From contig JACQGL010000067.1 of the NCBI GenBank assembly GCA_016199525.1, forward strand, positions 1 to 54,327: DNA of 54,327 nucleotides, in the 5' to 3' direction. The notes below the pieces were generated by a model. It was not told the DNA's origin, ran no database searches, and saw only the letters and a program-made list of their open reading frames with translations. Positions within the stretch are counted from its first letter, which is position 1. Each line of letters opens with the position of its first letter. Shown here piece after piece: positions 46,675 through 54,327 of this stretch. The DNA comes from Armatimonadota bacterium (lineage in GTDB: Bacteria; Armatimonadota; SYMT01; JACQGL01). The position numbers and the translations under genes are program-made.

Positions 46675-47796
46675 GTGGCCGTTCGAGCCGCGAATGCGGG
46701 GAGCTCCGGTGACGCCGGTGGGCCGCGCGCCGTGCTTCTCTGGGGCGCGGAAGAGGAAGAGAAGCGCTGCATCCTGGCGCGGCTGATTGAGGAACGCGTT
46801 GCCCCCGAGAACCGGGATCTGGACGTGGAATACCTCGACGCTACCTCGCCCGGCTTTACCGCGGACACGGTGATCCAGGCGGCTCGTGACCGCGCCATGT
46901 TCTCCGAGCGCCGCGTGGTCGTCGTCTACAACGCGCAGCGGTTCCGGGACCGGCGGACGCAAGGAGTCCAGGATGCGCTGGCAACGGCGCTGCCGCGCCT
47001 CCCCGACTACGCCACGGTCATTTTCGTGGCGCGGCACGTTGAGGAACGGGACTCCCGGCCCCGCGCGCCCGTATCCCCCTCCTTGATAAAGGCGATCCGC
47101 CACTGCGGCCAGGAGGTGCTCTGCGGTCCGGCGAGGCCGCCGGACCTCGCTCAGCGAGCGCAGGCTGAGGCGAGAGCGCTGGGAAAGCGGTTCCTCCCCG
47201 CCGCTCTCACGGAGCTGATCCAGCGGGCAGGCCCGGGCGCCGCCGGCGTGATCCAGGAGGTCCACAAGCTGGTCGCCTACGCGGGAGAGCGCGTGGAGAT
47301 CACCGCGGACGATGTGCGCCAGCTCCTTCCCCCGCGCCCGGACGACAACATCTTCCACCTGCTGGATGCGGCTGCCGCGGGCAAGCGAGTGGAGGCGCTG
47401 GCCCTGCTTCGCCAGTTGCTGGCAGCGGGCGAGCCACCCTCTCGTATTCTGTTCTGGCTGCGCCGCACCCTCCGCGAACTGCTCCAGGCGAAGTTCGTCC
47501 AGGAGCATGGCATCTCGCACGTTCACGAGGCGGACCAGCTGCCCGCCGGGGTGGCGGCGGCGCTTCCCCGGGAGGGCAACCTGTACGTGAGCGCGCGCCA
47601 GGTATGGAAGCGAAAGAACCTGTGGCTGCAGGCGGGGCGATTCAGCTGGGAGCAGCTAAGGGCGGCGTTCGACCGACTCTGCCTGGCGGAGGCAGGGCTA
47701 AAAGGTTGGGAAAGGGGCGTGGAGAACCCCGAACTGGCGCTGGAGGTGCTGGTGATCCGACTTTGCTCCGGCGAGCCGGCGGCGGGGGAAAGATGA
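46675..47796 (+). CDS. holA: DNA polymerase III subunit delta
   Basis: LLWGAEE, MFSERRVVVV, EVHKLVAY...IT.DDV, NIFHLLDA, LALE. GTG 46675 follows AAGGGAGG. Confidence 0.85.
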   Translation: MAVRAANAGSSGDAGGPRAVLLWGAEEEEKRCILARLIEERVAPENRDLDVEYLDATSPGFTADTVIQAARDRAMFSERRVVVVYNAQRFRDRRTQGVQDALATALPRLPDYATVIFVARHVEERDSRPRAPVSPSLIKAIRHCGQEVLCGPARPPDLAQRAQAEARALGKRFLPAALTELIQRAGPGAAGVIQEVHKLVAYAGERVEITADDVRQLLPPRPDDNIFHLLDAAAAGKRVEALALLRQLLAAGEPPSRILFWLRRTLRELLQAKFVQEHGISHVHEADQLPAGVAAALPREGNLYVSARQVWKRKNLWLQAGRFSWEQLRAAFDRLCLAEAGLKGWERGVENPELALEVLVIRLCSGEPAAGER

Positions 47797-47803
47797 GCGA
47801 CTC

Positions 47804-47830
47804 GGGATGGCGTCGGATCTACCCCATCCC
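47804..47830. terminator. Hairpin between convergent holA and STAS genes
   Basis: GGGATGG...CCATCCC inverted repeat. Confidence 0.4.
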
Positions 47831-47833
47831 GCC

Positions 47834-48622
47834 CTACAGCTTCGTCCGCCCAGCGGCCTGTCCCGCAGTTGAAGGGCGAGGGGCAGGCCGGGCAGGGCCC
47901 TCTTCCGGCAGGGGCATCTCCTCGATGGCGCCGATCAGGTCCGCCACCCGGGCCTGTGCCGAGGCCAGGTTCCCCACGCGCACTGCTTCAATCACCGGGT
48001 CCAGCGCACTCCGGCAACCGATATCCGCTGACCGTCCCCCCAGGGCATAGAAGAGGGGGCAGAACTGGCAGCGGTAGGCGGTGGGTGTGGGACGCTCCTG
48101 GAAGATCTCCTCGGCGCGCTCGCAGAGCGTGAACATCGAGGTGATCTGGCGGAGCACTTCCGCCGGTGGCCCCTCTTCGATCGCTTCCTGGATGGCGCAC
48201 CAGCGGGCCAACGTTTCCATCCGCGCCACCGCCCAGCTCTTCGGCGCGGACGGGGACGGTCTTCCGCACCGCAGCGCCGCGGCGGCGGCCTCCTCCGTGG
48301 GGAACACGGGAAGGATCTGGGTGAGGCCCACCACCTGCAGCAGACGCGCCGTTCGTTCGGTTCCCGCTACCACAACCAGGCGGCGCCCATCCTGCCGCAA
48401 TCGCTTGAAGGTATGGAGAATGGTCAGAATCCCCTCCATATCCAGAAAGCAGCAACCGGAGAGGTTCAGGGTGAGCGCGGGATGGCCGAGTATCACCAGG
48501 AGGTTCAGCTCCCGCCGCAGGGCTTCGGATGAGGCCACGCTCAGCTCGCCTGCACAGCGCAGAATCGGGCCAAACTCGCCAGGCAAGCGCACTAGGCGCA
48601 GCGCCCGTGGAGAACTGGCCAT
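47834..48622 (-). CDS. STAS (anti-sigma antagonist-like) domain fused to a Cys-rich C-terminal domain
   Basis: GELSV, LNLSGCCFLDMEG, RLLQVVGL. C-terminal C...CQFCP...C. Confidence 0.8.
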   Translation of the reverse strand: MASSPRALRLVRLPGEFGPILRCAGELSVASSEALRRELNLLVILGHPALTLNLSGCCFLDMEGILTILHTFKRLRQDGRRLVVVAGTERTARLLQVVGLTQILPVFPTEEAAAAALRCGRPSPSAPKSWAVARMETLARWCAIQEAIEEGPPAEVLRQITSMFTLCERAEEIFQERPTPTAYRCQFCPLFYALGGRSADIGCRSALDPVIEAVRVGNLASAQARVADLIGAIEEMPLPEEGPARPAPRPSTAGQAAGRTKL

Positions 48623-48721
48623 CTTCCCTCTTCCTTCTTTGCCACGGTGGAGCCGGTGGGGCGTCCGCCCGTAGAAAGGATTCGCTCTGGCGCCGCGCCG
48701 TGCCTCCCTGCGGGGAGAGGT

Positions 48722-49474
48722 TTATGCAACCATCACCTGGCAGCGCAGCCGGTCGAGCGCGCGCCGCTCCAGGCGGGAAACGTGCATCTGCGATACGCCC
48801 AGCCGCCGTGCTGCCTCCCTCTGGGTCAGGTTCCTGTAATAGCGCAGCTCAATGATCTCCTTGAGCGGTGGATCCAGCTCATTCACCGCCTGGCTCCAGG
48901 CAACTTGGGCCTCTATCTGCGCCAGCCCCGGGTCTTCCACCCCCAGGCACTCCTCGAGCACGACTGGCTGGTCGCGTTCCAGCGATTCCATTAGCCCGTC
49001 CAGCGAGTAGGGATGGCAGGCTTCCTCAATGGCGAGGGCTTCCGTTACCTGATCCGGCTCCACGCTGAGGGCGCTGGCCAGCTCAGGGATGGCGGGCGTG
49101 CGCCGAATGCGGACGGTCAGTTCGCGGTCCTTGGCGACCACCGCGGCGTGCAGGTCGAGCAACGAGCGGGGGGGACGCACTGGACGGGAGTGGTCGCGCA
49201 GGTAGCGCTTCAGCTCGCCTAAAATGGTGGGCACGGCGAAGGAGGAGAAACGATTGCCCAGAGCGGGATTGAAATGATCCACCGCCTTCACGAGGCCGAG
49301 CAGAGCCACCTGTTCCAGGTCCTCGTCGCCACGGCGACGGATGCGCCTGAGGACCGAATAGGCCAGTGGGCGGTACTGCTCAATGAGCCGCTCGCGTAGA
49401 CGGCGGGTCGGATGGGAGGCGTAAGCCGACCAGAGGTGATCGGCGGTCTCCGCGCTCGCTTGCTGGGTTACCAT
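48722..49474 (-). CDS. SigB/SigF/SigG-family sigma factor
   Basis: EDLEQVALLGLVKAVDHF, FSSFAVPTILGELKRYLRD, LTQREAARRLGVSQMHVSRL. ATG 49474 follows GAGGT. Confidence 0.93.
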   Translation of the reverse strand: MVTQQASAETADHLWSAYASHPTRRLRERLIEQYRPLAYSVLRRIRRRGDEDLEQVALLGLVKAVDHFNPALGNRFSSFAVPTILGELKRYLRDHSRPVRPPRSLLDLHAAVVAKDRELTVRIRRTPAIPELASALSVEPDQVTEALAIEEACHPYSLDGLMESLERDQPVVLEECLGVEDPGLAQIEAQVAWSQAVNELDPPLKEIIELRYYRNLTQREAARRLGVSQMHVSRLERRALDRLRCQVMVA

Positions 49475-49489
49475 TGCCCACCTCGCAAT

Positions 49490-49592
49490 AAAAAAAGCCC
49501 TACTCCCGAAGATCCGGTGCAGAGCACCAGCGTCCACGAGAGAGGGCATGCCTGGCCCTCGGAGACCGCACGGTCAGGGTCACGGCCTCCGA
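49490..49592 (-). promoter_or_regulatory. Attenuator-like leader: twin hairpins plus an intrinsic terminator upstream of the SigB-like gene
   Basis: Loops CCTGACC (49578-49572) and CAGGCAT (49554-49548). Hairpin 2 overlaps the stem GCCCT...AGGGC, which is followed by T7. Confidence 0.6.
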
Positions 49593-49630
49593 TTGTCAAC
49601 AATGAAGACGCATCAGCGTCGCGTTCTGTC

Positions 49631-50227
49631 TCACCGATTTGCAACAGAAAAAGAGGAGAGCGTCCGCCGGAGGCGACTGAGGCCGCGCTCGATTTGAGTG
49701 GCGACGGTACTGCGTGGGCGTCCGAGGCGACGGCCGACCTCGTCCTGCGGTATCCCCTCGAGCAGGTGGAGCTGGATCGGCTCCCGGTAGAGGGCGGGCA
49801 GGCGGGCCAGGGCACGGCCCAAATCCGCCCGCAGCAGGGCCAGGTCATACGGGTCGCTGACCTCCCGTGCGCCGACGATTTGTGCCTCGGGCGCGGGCAG
49901 GGCATCCAGCGACAATCCCGAACGCTTGCGGGACCGCAGGGCATCCAGGGCGGCGTGATGCACCAGGCGTCGCGCCCAGAGGGGAAACGCGCGCGGACGG
50001 CGCAGCTGGGGAAGGCGCTCCAGTACCCGCAGCTGAGCCAGCTGGGCAACGTCCTCGGCGTCCTCCGGCCCCAGGTGGTAGGTCCCGCGCGCCAGGTCTA
50101 TTGCCAGCTCGCGGACCGCCTCCAGCAGGGGGCGCCAGGCGATGGGATCCCCGCTGGCGCAGCCGGTTACCAGCCGCTCCAGGTCCTCTCCGAGCTGGCT
50201 CCGCAGTCGTTCCGTCCTTCCGACCAT
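49631..50227 (-). CDS. ECF sigma-70 family sigma factor
   Basis: DAEDVAQ, LRRPRAFPLW, LPALYREPI, EVGRRLGRPRSTV. ATG 50227 follows GGGAG. Confidence 0.9.
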   Translation of the reverse strand: MVGRTERLRSQLGEDLERLVTGCASGDPIAWRPLLEAVRELAIDLARGTYHLGPEDAEDVAQLAQLRVLERLPQLRRPRAFPLWARRLVHHAALDALRSRKRSGLSLDALPAPEAQIVGAREVSDPYDLALLRADLGRALARLPALYREPIQLHLLEGIPQDEVGRRLGRPRSTVATQIERGLSRLRRTLSSFSVANR

Positions 50228-50239
50228 CTTTTTTCTCCC

Positions 50240-50336
50240 AACCAACAAACACGCCCGGGCTGGATCCCAAAGGCGGTTAGGATCCGTGCCCGGGCGATCA
50301 TGGCCCGGCCCCCGGCGGCGACGACCGTGGTCGCCG
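50240..50336 (-). promoter_or_regulatory. Attenuator-like leader: twin hairpins plus a terminator-like stem upstream of the ECF gene
   Basis: CGGCGAC-CACGGTC-GTCGCCG, a 7-nt linker, then CCGGGC-CATGATC-GCCCGG overlapping GCCCGGGC...GCCCGGGC-GTGTTTGTT. Confidence 0.55.
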
Positions 50337-50422
50337 ATGAGGCTCACATCTTCAGTTGTGCCCGCGCTGTACCGTTAGGCTTTCGCAACCCCGACCGTTG
50401 TCGGGACGGAACACCGGTGCGA

Positions 50423-51004
50423 CTATCCCAGCAGTTCGGCAGCGACCAGCACCTGCTCTGCCGTCTGCTTCAGGGTCTGGCGCCGATCCCGGCTAAGCTT
50501 CTGCAGCCGCCGGTACGCTTCATCCTCGGCTAGTTTGTAGTGGCGCATGAGGACTCCCTTGGCACGCTCTACCACTTTACGCGTCTCCAGGGCTTCTTTC
50601 AGGTCGGACACCTCATTGCGCAGTTCCCGCAGCTCGGCGAAGCGGTTTAATGCTACGGCGAGGGCAGGTTCGATCTGCTCCTCGCTGACCGGTTTGACGA
50701 GATAACCTGAGGCGCCCGCGTGCAGGGCGGCATCCACCAGTTCTCGCTCGCTATAGGCAGTAATCATCACGATGGCGGTGGGCTGCGTTTGCATGATCTG
50801 CTCGGTGGCCGCGATGCCGTCCAGCTTCGGCATTCGGATGTCCATCAGGATGGCATCCGGTTGCAGTCGTACGGCGGCGGCGACTGCTTCCTCTCCATCC
50901 CTGGCCTCGCCCACCACCTCGTAACCCAGATTGGCCAGGCTAGTCCGCAGCCGTAGCGTCGTCAGGCCTTCGTCTTCGCAGATCACTACTCTTGCGCGCG
51001 CCAT
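50423..51004 (-). CDS. ANTAR-domain response regulator (PdtaR/EutV-like)
   Basis: REC domain (CEDE, MDIRMP, YLVKP) plus ANTAR (RKVVERAKGVLM...AYRRLQKLS). Confidence 0.95.
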   Translation of the reverse strand: MARARVVICEDEGLTTLRLRTSLANLGYEVVGEARDGEEAVAAAVRLQPDAILMDIRMPKLDGIAATEQIMQTQPTAIVMITAYSERELVDAALHAGASGYLVKPVSEEQIEPALAVALNRFAELRELRNEVSDLKEALETRKVVERAKGVLMRHYKLAEDEAYRRLQKLSRDRRQTLKQTAEQVLVAAELLG

Positions 51005-51013
51005 GTATTCTCT

Positions 51014-53986
51014 CTACCAGGGAAACCAAATCTGCGCCACCAGACCGGGGCCACCCCCCAAGGTTAGCTTACCATTCAGATCCCGCTCGGCCAGGGTCTG
51101 CACCACGATCAGACCCACATTGGCGTGGGTGTGCAGATCAAAGTCGGGCAGCAGCCCAGGGCCGTCATCCTGGACACGCAGGAGCAGGCCATCGTCCGTC
51201 TGTTCGAGGCGCACCTGGAGCCGCCCGCCCTGGCGTCCGGCGAAGGCGTGCTTGGCGGCGTTACTTACCAGCTCGTTCACGATTAACGCCAGCGCGGTGG
51301 CTTTCTTGGAGGAAAGCGGGACGGAGGGAACCTGAACGTTCAGCGCCACGGTTGCGGGAGAGAGGCCACTGCTACGCAACACCATCGGCACCAGGCGTTC
51401 CACCACGGCGCGCGCGTCTACCACGCGGACGTCCTCTTCCTGGGACAGGAGATCGTGGACCAGGGCGATGGCCTGGATACGTTCCATGCTCTCCCGCAGG
51501 GCGTCGCTGGCGGAAGCACCACTCTTGGAGGAGAGTTCCAGGTAGAGCAGATCGGAAATGGCCTGGAGGTTATTCTTGATCCGGTGGTGCGCCTCCCGCA
51601 CCGATAGTTTCAACTGCTCGCTCTTTTCCCTTTCGCTGGCCAGGAGATGAGCGCGTTCTTCCTCCGCCCGTTTACGTTCGGTGATGTCGGTGGAGATCCC
51701 GCAGACCGCGTAAGGCACGCCGGTGGAATCGTAAAGCGGGAACTTGATCGAGATATAGGTGTGGATTCCATCCTGGTGCGGGGCAGCTTCCTCTATCTCC
51801 AGGGGCGCTCCGGCTTCGAGCACGTTCTGATCGTTGGCGCGAAATGCGTCAGCCATTTCCTTGGGGAAGAGATCGTAGTCGGTCTGGCCGGCGACCTGCT
51901 CCCTGGAGGTATTGAACACGGTTTCAAACCAGCGATTGATGAATATGTATCTACCCTGGGTGTCCTTCAGGTAGATGACCGCAGTGGAGTTATCCAGAAT
52001 GGCCTGCAGCCGCTTCTCACTCTCCCGTAATGCCTCTCCTGCTCGCTTCCGCTCCATGAATTGGCCGATCTGGGAGCCAATATCAGCCATCATTCGCAGG
52101 AGGTTGTCATCGGGCTGGCGGGTGCCGCGGCTGAAGAACACCATAATGCCGGTAACTTTACCACCGCTCTGGATGGGGAAGGCGAAGGCGCCGTGCAGTC
52201 CCTCTCTGGATGCGGTATCAGAACGGAGAAAATCTCCTTCGGTGGCAACGTCGATAATCCATTCGGGCTGGCCAGTGGCCCAGACGCGACCTGGCAGGCC
52301 GACTCCCGACGGGAAGGTAATCTCGCGACTGATCGCCTCGAGCTCCCTGACTTGGAGCGAGGACGCGTGCCAGGTTGCCTCCCAGCGTAATCGGTTGGCG
52401 AGCGGATCCCCTCGCCAAAGCTCGCCTACCTCCCATCCTGTACCTTCACAGAGGGCTTGCAGGAGCCGGGGGATGGCGTCGCCGATGGTGGCCGCCTCGG
52501 CCAGGATGCGAGACACGGCGAACTGTGTGGTCTGACGCTCCTCGGCTCGCTTACGCTCGGTAATGTCGCGGACGACACTGATGACCACGGCGCCGTTCTC
52601 GGTGGACGTGGGGCTCAGGCTGATCTCCACGGGAAACTCGCTGCCATCCTTGCGCCTGGCAAGGAGATCGAGACCAACTCCCATCGGCCGGGTGCGAGGA
52701 TGGGAGTGATAGTGGGCGCGGTGCGTAATGTGCACCTTCCGGTACCGCTCGGGCATCAGCGTCTCAATCGATTGGCCCAGCAATTCTTCCTGACGGTAGC
52801 CGAAGACCTTCTCCGCCTGCGTGTTGACGAGTAAGATGCGCCCATCACTGTTAAGAATCACGATCGCATCTGGTGCAGATTCGAGTAGGACACGAAATCT
52901 TGCCTGCGCGGCTTCGGCCTCGGCACGCGCCGCCTGCTCAGCGAGGAAGAGACGGGCATTGGCAATCCAGACGGAGGCCTGGTTGGCGAAGATCATCGCC
53001 AGCTCTATCTCATCCGGGGAAAGGCGAAGTGGCTGCTCGCAGCGATCTCCCAGCAGCAGGCCGATCACCTGGTCGTGCGCCACCAGCGGTACGGCGAGGG
53101 CAGCACACATCCGTGTCCGGTAGACAAAATCGGCAGGGAGGAGGCCTTCGGCGGCGGGATCCTCGCTTACTACGGGCTGTCGCCCTTGCAGCACAGAGGC
53201 TGCCAGCGGCAATGCCTCCAGGCAAGCCCGCAGCTGGCGGACCTCCTCTTCGCTGAAGCCGGAGCTGGCGGTCCCCACCAGTTCTCCCGATTCGGGCAGC
53301 CAGTAGACCACGAGGGTGCGCTCCAGGCGTACCAGCTGCGCCATCCGCTCGGTAGTCAACTGCAGCGCCCGATCCAGGTCCGGGGCCGGGCCCACGTCCT
53401 GGCTGCACTGGTGGAGGGCGGCCAGGTACTCGATTTTGCGCTGCGCCGCCGCGTAGAGCTCTGCGTTACCCAGCGCCATGCCCACCTGGTTTGCCAGCGC
53501 GGTGAGCAATTCCCGGTCGGCCGCTTCGAAGGGGCGGACGCGGGTATCCGCCATACTGAGACAGCCGAGCAGCATCACCTTGCACTGGAGCGGCACGGAG
53601 ACGAACGTGTGGTAGCCGTGCCGCACCCAGGGGGAATGGACGTAGGGGCTGCGCGCCAGGTCATCCACCACCAGCAGCTCGCGCCGCTGGGCCGCGAGTC
53701 CCCCCGGTGCATCGCCTACACGGATCTTACAACGGGTGGTTACTACCTCCTCCGGCAAACCCTGGTGGGCAGTGAGGACCAGCTCGCCAGTGAGCGGGTC
53801 GAGCAGGCGGATCACCCCGCTGGGGAAGTCGAACACCTCCAGGACCTTCTCCAACGCGTGGGGGAGCAGGACGTTCAGGTCCAGCGAGGCGTTGACGGCG
53901 TTGGAGATGGAATAGAGCGCTTCCAGGGATACGCGGGTGTGTGTGCCGGCATCCATCGAGGTAATCCTATCCACGATCCGGGCCAT
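51014..53986 (-). CDS. Cytoplasmic sensor histidine kinase GAF-GAF-PAS-GAF-PAS-HisKA_2-HATPase (PdtaS/EutW-like)
   Basis: EAHHRIKNNLQ, NELVSNAAKHA, VQDDGPGL; PAS motifs LESAPDAIV and LDNSTAVIY. Start is ATG 53986 or 53956. Confidence 0.92.
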   Translation of the reverse strand: MARIVDRITSMDAGTHTRVSLEALYSISNAVNASLDLNVLLPHALEKVLEVFDFPSGVIRLLDPLTGELVLTAHQGLPEEVVTTRCKIRVGDAPGGLAAQRRELLVVDDLARSPYVHSPWVRHGYHTFVSVPLQCKVMLLGCLSMADTRVRPFEAADRELLTALANQVGMALGNAELYAAAQRKIEYLAALHQCSQDVGPAPDLDRALQLTTERMAQLVRLERTLVVYWLPESGELVGTASSGFSEEEVRQLRACLEALPLAASVLQGRQPVVSEDPAAEGLLPADFVYRTRMCAALAVPLVAHDQVIGLLLGDRCEQPLRLSPDEIELAMIFANQASVWIANARLFLAEQAARAEAEAAQARFRVLLESAPDAIVILNSDGRILLVNTQAEKVFGYRQEELLGQSIETLMPERYRKVHITHRAHYHSHPRTRPMGVGLDLLARRKDGSEFPVEISLSPTSTENGAVVISVVRDITERKRAEERQTTQFAVSRILAEAATIGDAIPRLLQALCEGTGWEVGELWRGDPLANRLRWEATWHASSLQVRELEAISREITFPSGVGLPGRVWATGQPEWIIDVATEGDFLRSDTASREGLHGAFAFPIQSGGKVTGIMVFFSRGTRQPDDNLLRMMADIGSQIGQFMERKRAGEALRESEKRLQAILDNSTAVIYLKDTQGRYIFINRWFETVFNTSREQVAGQTDYDLFPKEMADAFRANDQNVLEAGAPLEIEEAAPHQDGIHTYISIKFPLYDSTGVPYAVCGISTDITERKRAEEERAHLLASEREKSEQLKLSVREAHHRIKNNLQAISDLLYLELSSKSGASASDALRESMERIQAIALVHDLLSQEEDVRVVDARAVVERLVPMVLRSSGLSPATVALNVQVPSVPLSSKKATALALIVNELVSNAAKHAFAGRQGGRLQVRLEQTDDGLLLRVQDDGPGLLPDFDLHTHANVGLIVVQTLAERDLNGKLTLGGGPGLVAQIWFPW

Positions 53987-54098
53987 TTGTAACGAAGAGC
54001 GCCGCCGACGGCCTATCCGTCGGTATCGGCGCTCCTGGCCTGCAAGCCCCCGGCAATCCTGGACGGCGAGCTGTGCGCTTGGGAATCTAACTACATTC

Positions 54099-54127
54099 CT
54101 TATAATCCGATTGCTGCCGCAAGTCAA
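54099..54127 (-). promoter_or_regulatory. Sigma70-type promoter for the kinase operon
   Basis: On the minus strand: TTGACT, 17-nt spacer, TATAAG. Confidence 0.6.
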
Positions 54128-54181
54128 CCGCTATTTTTGGGTGCGTTCGAGGTGAGTAGGTAAGGAATTCGTGCCCGAGGC

Positions 54182-54303
54182 GTAGCGCCCCGAACGCTTT
54201 CGGGGCATGCCCCCGCACGGAGGCCGCTGCGTGCAGGCCCCGAACGCCCCGAGCCTGACGGCCCGAGGGCAGGCTTTCGGGGCAGGCAGGATGCCTGCGC
54301 TAC
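54182..54303. repeat. REP-like element with nested palindromic insertions
   Basis: GTAGCGC...GCAGGCAGGATGCCTGCGCTAC framing CCCCGAACGCTTTCGGGG (54188-54205) and a second copy split by a 27-nt insert (54238-54282). Confidence 0.6.
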
Positions 54304-54327
54304 CCACTGAACCGGCCACAAGAAGGG

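Follow-up and report, generated by a model that had tools for sequence, protein, structure and literature searches.

Tandem C1/G4 heptaloop hairpins in the leaders of two sigma factor genes: a candidate variant of the ANTAR antitermination code in Armatimonadota

Two sigma factor genes on the minus strand of an Armatimonadota contig (the window, the whole 54,327-nt stretch of DNA that was analysed) are each preceded by a leader in which a pair of small hairpins with seven-nucleotide loops adjoins a predicted intrinsic terminator, and both leaders are probably ANTAR-type transcription attenuators with an altered RNA code. The probability attached to this reading, which is drawn from sequence comparison, is a little under four in five. 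The published ANTAR target, as described in the available text of three primary papers (PMC3369931, PMC8934654, PMC8164766) and a review (PMC12591593), consists of two hexaloops in which the first base is A and the fourth is G (A1 and G4), whereas the loops here have C1 and G4. Related leaders were gathered from across the phylum, to a total of 21 in 14 genomes of three or four families, and their comparison indicates that they are a real, conserved regulatory RNA; most likely they represent a variant form of the ANTAR antitermination code that serves sigma genes specifically.

Every relevant gene is carried on the minus strand, in the order kinase, REC-ANTAR regulator, leader 1, ECF sigma factor, leader 2, SigB-like sigma factor and STAS protein. 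The first encodes a sensor histidine kinase (51014-54127) with three GAF and two PAS matches, HisKA_2 and HATPase domains in Pfam, an architecture that is PdtaS-like, and this kinase is presumed to be the partner of the regulator. The 193-aa REC-ANTAR response regulator (50423-51004), identified from Pfam, PDB matches and an orthologue alignment, lies above the curated Pfam cut-offs with 92.2 bits for Response_reg and 76.2 bits for ANTAR (PF03861). A preliminary description of this DNA had placed an ANTAR regulator immediately upstream of the leaders, and the Pfam assignments of this gene and of its neighbours (kinase, ECF sigma, SigB-like sigma and STAS) confirm it. Leader 1 covers the 195 nt from the ANTAR stop to the ECF-sigma start (50228-50422) and leads into the gene of a 198-aa ECF-type sigma factor (49631-50227; Pfam, orthologues), the ATG of which is at 50227 with GGGAG ahead of it. 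Leader 2, of 156 nt, separates this gene from that of a 250-aa group-3 (SigB/SigF-like) sigma factor (48722-49474), recognised from orthologues and from Pfam regions 2, 3 (weak) and 4. The final gene encodes an anti-sigma-antagonist-like STAS-domain protein (47834-48622; Pfam) and converges with a plus-strand DNA polymerase III delta-like gene, which is where the cluster ends. The genome also encodes a second REC-ANTAR protein, on contig C56, adjoining a GAF/HisKA_2 kinase of its own.

The two leaders, with all their elements on the minus strand, share one design. In leader 1 the first hairpin (H1, 50316-50336) has a 7-bp stem and the loop CACGGUC (50323-50329), and is found in both the minimum-energy and the centroid folds as well as in the alignment with orthologues. 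The second (H2, 50290-50308), a putative antiterminator read from the sequence and the model alignment, pairs CCGGGC with GCCCGG around the loop CAUGAUC (50296-50302). The terminator (50244-50295; fold, terminator scan) has its stem at 50253-50295 and a tail weak in U, GUGUUUGUU, at 50244-50252. In leader 2 the H1 (49559-49592; minimum-energy and centroid folds, model alignment) has a long stem, interrupted by a single bulged G, and the loop CCUGACC (49572-49578), and the core of H2, again a putative antiterminator (49544-49558; sequence, model alignment), pairs GGGC with GCCC around CAGGCAU (49548-49554), in a stem that can be extended to GAGGGC/GCCCUC (49542-49560). The terminator of leader 2 (49490-49547; folds) joins a stem at 49497-49547 to a U7 tail at 49490-49496. 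The earlier description of these elements proves accurate base for base with regard to the tandem C-G-closed hairpins and their 7-nt loops with C1 and G4, and from the coordinates with regard to the inter-loop gaps of 20 and 17 nt; the U7 tail that it gave to one leader belongs to leader 2 and the weaker tail to leader 1.

Central to the design is the 3' arm of H2, which, as had been claimed, doubles as the 5' arm of the terminator in the sequence and folds of both leaders, H2 and the terminator being mutually exclusive. The terminator hairpins are 43 nt in leader 1 and 51 nt in leader 2, and both leaders have the GC-rich hairpin and U tract of a predicted intrinsic terminator, with a weaker tail in leader 1. 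When the alternatives were folded with RNAfold, a check that the preliminary description had proposed, the minimum-energy structures of both leaders contained H1 and the terminator, with H2 as the alternative. The fold z-scores against shuffles are modest (-1.53 for leader 1 and -2.50 for leader 2), and a simple scan for terminators picks up the site in leader 1 and misses the long hairpin of leader 2.

Within this single GC-rich genome the bare pattern is not beyond chance. A loose descriptor applied to the whole genome found 1013 C1/G4 dual hairpins (7+7/8-nt loops) against 1343 and 1258 for the G1/G4 and C1/C4 controls, and when an overlapping terminator was also required 47 C1/G4 cases were found against 48-68 for control letter pairs, so that this whole-genome scan gives no enrichment of C1/G4 over control letter pairs with or without the terminator. 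Leader 2 was missed by the descriptor because of the bulge in its H1. Dual A1/G4 hexaloops with a terminator gave only two matches genome-wide in the descriptor scan, both of them chance-like, and the scan accordingly yielded no target for the Met-type ANTAR of contig C56. An Rfam scan of 47000-54327 at E <= 10 returned five weak, unrelated matches and nothing ANTAR-like, although Rfam may hold no ANTAR-target family. The case for the leaders thus rests on cross-genome comparison, and it is there that a prosaic account has to be answered, in which these would be ordinary intrinsic terminators that punctuate an operon, with incidental hairpins whose loop letters are shared by descent. The frequency of the pattern by chance in a GC-rich genome is in keeping with that account, as is the position of leader 1 after a gene end.

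The comparison began from the order, represented by the genome of the window and seven others. An orthologue of the ECF sigma factor, with 41-58% identity, is present in six of the seven (the best match in the remaining one, G003, reaches merely 35%), and in all six it stands directly after a REC-ANTAR gene whose product is 63-80% identical. All six ECF intergenic leaders contain an H1 of variable stem, an H2 of the GGGC/GCCC type and a terminator that uses the H2 3' arm. The covariance-model scan of relatives that had been called for was carried out with a model (R1) seeded on six of the ECF leaders, and it finds held-out leaders of both ECF and SigB-like genes. For instance, the held-out ECF leader of G001 is found at 26.5 bits (E 0.0016), and over the eight genomes of the order a match appears immediately before the SigB-like gene of G007. 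Leader 2 of the window receives 12.5 bits (E 1.1) and ranks eighth among the matches, which is not significant alone. SigB-like orthologues, 46-48% identical, are found in six genomes, and upstream of them R1 gives 28.6, 26.0, 24.8 and 15.8 bits in four cases and 12.5-12.7 in two, with the full leader design readable in the sequence before all six. The placement of the SigB-like gene varies, since it may lie 7 kb away (G002), on another contig (G005) or divergent from the ANTAR gene (G007), and as the design is kept in the six despite this relocation, leader 2 of the window falls into a separate, conserved class of leaders.

A mixed model (R2) with 11 seeds behaves similarly in hold-outs, with 23.2 bits for the ECF leader of G001, 19.3 for its SigB-like leader and 17.2 (E 0.35) for leader 2 of the window, which is the best non-seed match in the 54-kb window, weak as it is. 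Throughout the order the seven ECF-sigma and seven SigB-like leaders have loops that retain C1 and G4 and are closed by C-G, and in each of them H2 overlaps a terminator. In the other direction G003, which is 94% complete, has neither the motif nor an ECF orthologue nor an ANTAR of the Arg type, and its only ANTAR proteins are one of the Met type and one that is divergent.

Conservation extends through the entire set of 21 leaders. Every one of the 42 loops has C1 and G4 and is closed by a C-G pair, with the remaining loop positions variable; 36 are of 7 nt, six of 8 nt and none of 6 nt, and the loop starts are spaced by 23-29 nt (16 leaders measured). H2 and the terminator are mutually exclusive in 16 of 16 leaders folded, and by eye in the five later ones. 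In 15 of those 16 the 3' arm of H2 and the 5' arm of the terminator start with one and the same base, while the predicted terminator of G018 spans the entire H2. Weak U tracts are confined to two of the 16, namely leader 1 of the window and the SigB-like leader of G006. The specificity of the models is indicated by a search of 53.5 kb from 15 loci, where all 19 model matches at E <= 0.5 were predicted leaders (16 distinct). Among the 16 distinct leaders, standard pairs fill 94.8% of the paired cells against 81.2 +/- 1.7% in shuffles, and two-sided changes occur in 27 cells, in six of the seven H1 pairs; none of 500 shuffles reaches any of the observed measures and slid controls are 30-48% paired, all figures from an alignment that was fitted to the model and so favours the structure.

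These results bear directly on the operon-punctuation account. It retains one further point in its favour in that the H2 stem, GGGC/GCCC, barely varies and therefore yields no covariation signal. Against it, however, the H1 stem and the linker differ between the two classes of leader and among three or four families while the closing pair, C1 and G4 persist in every loop, the H1 pairs show the two-sided changes already described, and a sigma factor is encoded downstream of all 20 leaders checked, out of 21. Moreover, the terminators are preceded by a conserved promoter-like element and followed by the sigma gene, even where the SigB-like gene stands alone, and the account is very unlikely. The preliminary description had read the hairpins as a heptaloop variant of the ANTAR target, a reading for which it made loop conservation and covariation in orthologous leaders a test; the loops are conserved and H1 covaries, and the attenuator reading is thereby strengthened.

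Leaders of this kind also occur beyond the order. The regulator has a homologue (E <= 1e-35) in 286 of the 401 genomes sampled from the phylum, and just two of 23 loci from outside the order, all with an Arg-type ANTAR, have the R2 motif within about 1.5 kb. In G162 (39.8 bits) the motif stands before a gene for an ECF-type sigma factor 1.1 kb upstream of the ANTAR gene, and in G018 (28.9 bits) it has the ANTAR gene on one side and a gene for an ECF-type sigma factor on the other. A third model (R3), built from all 16 leaders, was run on two families, f27 and f13, and gave matches in five of 24 genomes of the former (six matches, four with terminators) and four of 32 of the latter (four matches, three with terminators), adding the leaders of G052, G293, G378, G031 and G400. 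There are consequently seven leaders outside the order, in f27 (G162, G052, G293 and G378) and f13 (G018, G031 and G400). Six of the seven are followed by an ECF-type sigma gene according to Pfam (loci L165, L179, L281 and L278) or tblastn (L276 and L277), with L282 outside this check. The three f13 leaders directly follow an Arg-type ANTAR gene.

Wider searches added little to this set. R2 run phylum-wide at E <= 0.05 with strict filters matched in 6 of 151 genomes, all from the order and including that of the window, filters of such strictness that the result does not demonstrate absence elsewhere. Nor was the motif found in the flanks of L192, L202 and L220, three loci that encode an Arg-type ANTAR and bear names from other lineages. 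The sequencing runs listed for this sequence include no RNA run, and three DNA runs, all of one study, contain a minor share of its words. Whole-genome model searches scored 40-150 first-look candidates per genome, and among the candidates inspected there were no convincing further regulon members beyond the leaders. One match, G001:C8:13998-14045 (27-30 bits), was rejected as it is antisense within an open frame and without a terminator, and those at G162:C9, G018:C11, G018:C129, G077:C522, G171, G052:C8 and G406 were rejected for want of a terminator.

The proposed mechanism is one of regulated readthrough. When the regulator is absent, the leader would fold into H1 and the strong intrinsic terminator, and transcription would halt before the sigma gene. 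The GAF/PAS/HisKA_2 kinase may phosphorylate the adjacent REC-ANTAR regulator, a dimer of which, once phosphorylated, would bind both loops through their C1, G4, 7-8-nt length and starts 23-29 nt apart. The bound dimer would stabilise H2, which takes the 5' arm of the terminator, and RNA polymerase could then read through into the genes for the ECF and SigB-like sigma factors. A related idea keeps the ANTAR protein as the ligand of the dual hairpin and has it act on translation or RNA stability in place of termination. PdtaR is the closest solved relative of the regulator and many actinobacterial ANTAR targets, in the available text of PMC8164766, overlap the ribosome-binding site while few have terminators. 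In the present leaders, by contrast, the hairpins are clear of both the ribosome-binding site and the start codon, and H2 always competes with a hairpin that is followed by a U-rich tail, so that an effect on translation or stability seems highly improbable.

Attenuation appears to be combined with a promoter layer. Alignment of the upstream regions with MAFFT brings out a TGC(A/G)NC-N16-17-(G/C)(C/U)GTC pattern upstream of H1 in all seven SigB-like leaders, and the candidate in leader 2 of the window (49606-49633, minus strand) consists of TGAGAC (49628-49633), 16 nt and GCGTCT (49606-49611), overlapping the ECF stop codon. We take this element to resemble ECF-type promoters. The ECF sigma factor may thus read the SigB-like promoter, which would create a feed-forward cascade of both sigma genes gated twice by one regulator, although such a cascade is a possible and rather doubtful extension of the attenuator model.

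How might an ANTAR protein come to read a loop that starts with C? The closest solved relatives of the window regulator are Rv1626/PdtaR (1s8n, E 3.3e-46) and EutV (6wsh, E 3e-41). In the structure of EutV with RNA, as far as the available text of PMC8934654 describes it, G4 stacks on Tyr164 and A1 makes no specific contact, while Met172 plugs the hexaloop, is essential for binding and has been proposed as the determinant of loop size. Mutation of A1 reduces both binding and induction in the EutV system, according to the part of PMC3369931 seen, and a canonical ANTAR protein is therefore not expected to accept C1 loops; by this analogy the reading of C1 loops would need an altered ANTAR specificity. 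A candidate for that alteration is seen at position 172, where an Arg of the window regulator aligns with the plug Met of EutV. Other EutV contacts are kept (R142, K143, K149, E160, the G4-stacking aromatic Y164 and R175), with M172 changed to R and R177 to T, and in place of R168 there is the Q that most PdtaR-like homologues have.

Arg is found at position 172 in all seven orthologues and in 30 of the 30 best in-phylum homologues. Among the matches listed in a wider set of homologues, mostly under Actinomycetota and Chloroflexota names, Met is found in 77 of 80 and Arg in three, and the second REC-ANTAR of this genome, on contig C56, has Met. We infer that Arg172 is the protein side of the change from an A1 hexaloop to a C1 hepta- or octaloop, a correlation across sequences of relatives that are not independent of one another. 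A broader proposal is that the Arg-type ANTAR class has co-evolved with a C1/G4 hepta-/octaloop code, could work in one cell beside the canonical Met type with no cross-talk and is dedicated to sigma genes in a coherent feed-forward cascade; this is put forward tentatively, with the balance tipped slightly against it.

The pairing of regulator and motif is also what has to be weighed against the idea that control of the attenuators lies elsewhere than with the adjacent Arg-type ANTAR, whether with another RNA-binding protein, with the Met-type paralogue or with kinetic or translational coupling. The genome does contain the other REC-ANTAR gene, accompanied by a separate GAF/HisKA_2 kinase, and in f27 the regulator is not always near, some copies of the motif being on contigs without any ANTAR gene. 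Yet the regulator gene is directly upstream of the motif in 7/7 genomes of the order and 3/3 in f13, regulator and motif are missing together from G003, and the architecture mirrors the ANTAR design throughout, including G4 and the 23-29 nt between loop starts, for which the eutP leader has 24 nt (A29 and A53; PMC3369931, from the text available). Control by another factor is consequently improbable, and the adjacent Arg-type regulator is the favoured ligand of the leaders.

A full-text literature search found no heptaloop variant and no ANTAR control of sigma genes in the text that was accessible, and the supplementary tables of PMC3369931 and PMC8164766 might include such cases. One published ANTAR screen, in the portion of PMC8164766 available, considered hexanucleotide loops only and allowed a single point variation. 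A C1/G4 hepta/octaloop version would be invisible to screens for A1/G4 hexaloops, and ANTAR regulons may therefore be undercounted in some phyla. The RNA change, paired with the replacement of Met by Arg, also offers a direct experiment on how ANTAR proteins read their loops. If ANTAR control of sigma genes is true, it would subject an entire cascade of transcription to a switch that acts after initiation.

Of the known systems, compared here on the basis of the sections available in the papers cited, the nearest is EutV/EutW of Enterococcus faecalis, which likewise combines a REC-ANTAR protein with a HisKA_2-type kinase (PMC3369931, PMC8934654). As in the eut leaders, two small hairpins lie near each other, the second shares its 3' arm with an intrinsic terminator and the loops have G4; the window regulator conserves the aromatic residue that stacks on G4 and most of the basic contact residues of EutV. 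The systems differ in that the loops here are of 7-8 nt rather than 6 and begin with C rather than A, that Arg replaces Met172, and that the targets are sigma-factor genes where the eut target is a catabolic operon. PdtaS/PdtaR (Rv1626) of Mycobacterium tuberculosis resembles the present pair in its cytoplasmic GAF-PAS kinase and dual stem-loop target (PMC8131098, PMC8164766), but in the alignment PdtaR still has the Met of the plug, and the RNAs targeted in actinobacteria, which were defined with A1/G4 hexaloops, in most cases overlap the ribosome-binding site and not a terminator (PMC8164766). NasR/nasF of Klebsiella oxytoca and AmiR/amiE of Pseudomonas aeruginosa share antitermination by an ANTAR protein at a leader terminator through two G4 hairpins, and differ in their sensor domains, their A1 hexaloops and their targets in nitrogen and amide metabolism. 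Thus the 21 leaders have the tandem stem-loops with a short linker, the G4 and the exclusivity of H2 and terminator that mark an ANTAR target, while hexanucleotide loops and A1 occur in 0 of 42, and the design is best described as apparently ANTAR-like, a non-canonical member of the class.

The seven SigB-like sigma leaders of the window and of loci L131-L136 all conserve a candidate ECF-like promoter element, TGC(A/G)NC-N16-17-(G/C)(C/U)GTC, which is situated 35-50 nt upstream of H1, the first of the two tandem hairpins. In the window this pattern occupies 49606-49633 on the minus strand, where the -35 part of the candidate promoter overlaps the stop codon of the ECF gene. Directly 3' of this stop codon there is also a small terminator-like hairpin, GACGC-UGAU-GCGUC followed by UUCAUUGUU (49607-49620, minus strand), which was flagged by the terminator scan and which overlaps the candidate -10 of the same promoter.

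Common to seven ECF leaders is a conserved A/T-rich block resembling GAAYTGAATAY, which is found immediately 5' of H1 at about 50339-50358 on the minus strand of the window and at the equivalent position in loci L002-L007. This block may represent a -10 promoter element, in which case the start of transcription would fall at the foot of H1. A match in genome G001 (C8:13998-14045; positions 1501-1548 of locus L128), which scores 27-30 bits with both the covariance model built from six ECF leaders and the mixed model of 11 ECF and SigB-like seeds, was rejected as a further leader, since it lacks a terminator and runs antisense within an open reading frame; the sequence there is 83% GC, and the resemblance probably arose by chance.

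The cluster also encodes, 3' of the SigB-like sigma gene, a 262-aa STAS protein (47834-48622, minus strand), in which the STAS match is confined to residues 20-113 and the C-terminal ~150 residues have no Pfam match. No gene for an RsbW-like anti-sigma kinase is visible within the sigma/STAS cluster of the window.

Among other ANTAR proteins of the phylum, one clade (L172 and L174, from genomes G349 and G399) has the unusual helix IHF(M/Q)ARNQNK in place of LQKLSRDRRQ, a signature also present in L220, a record bearing the name Chthonomonadia. The window's own genome encodes a second REC-ANTAR protein on contig C56, its gene being followed by that of a GAF/HisKA_2 kinase (locus L121, 3-2055, minus strand). 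No RNA target for this regulator was found nearby or by descriptor scan; its plug position, the residue aligned with Met172 of EutV, is likewise Met.
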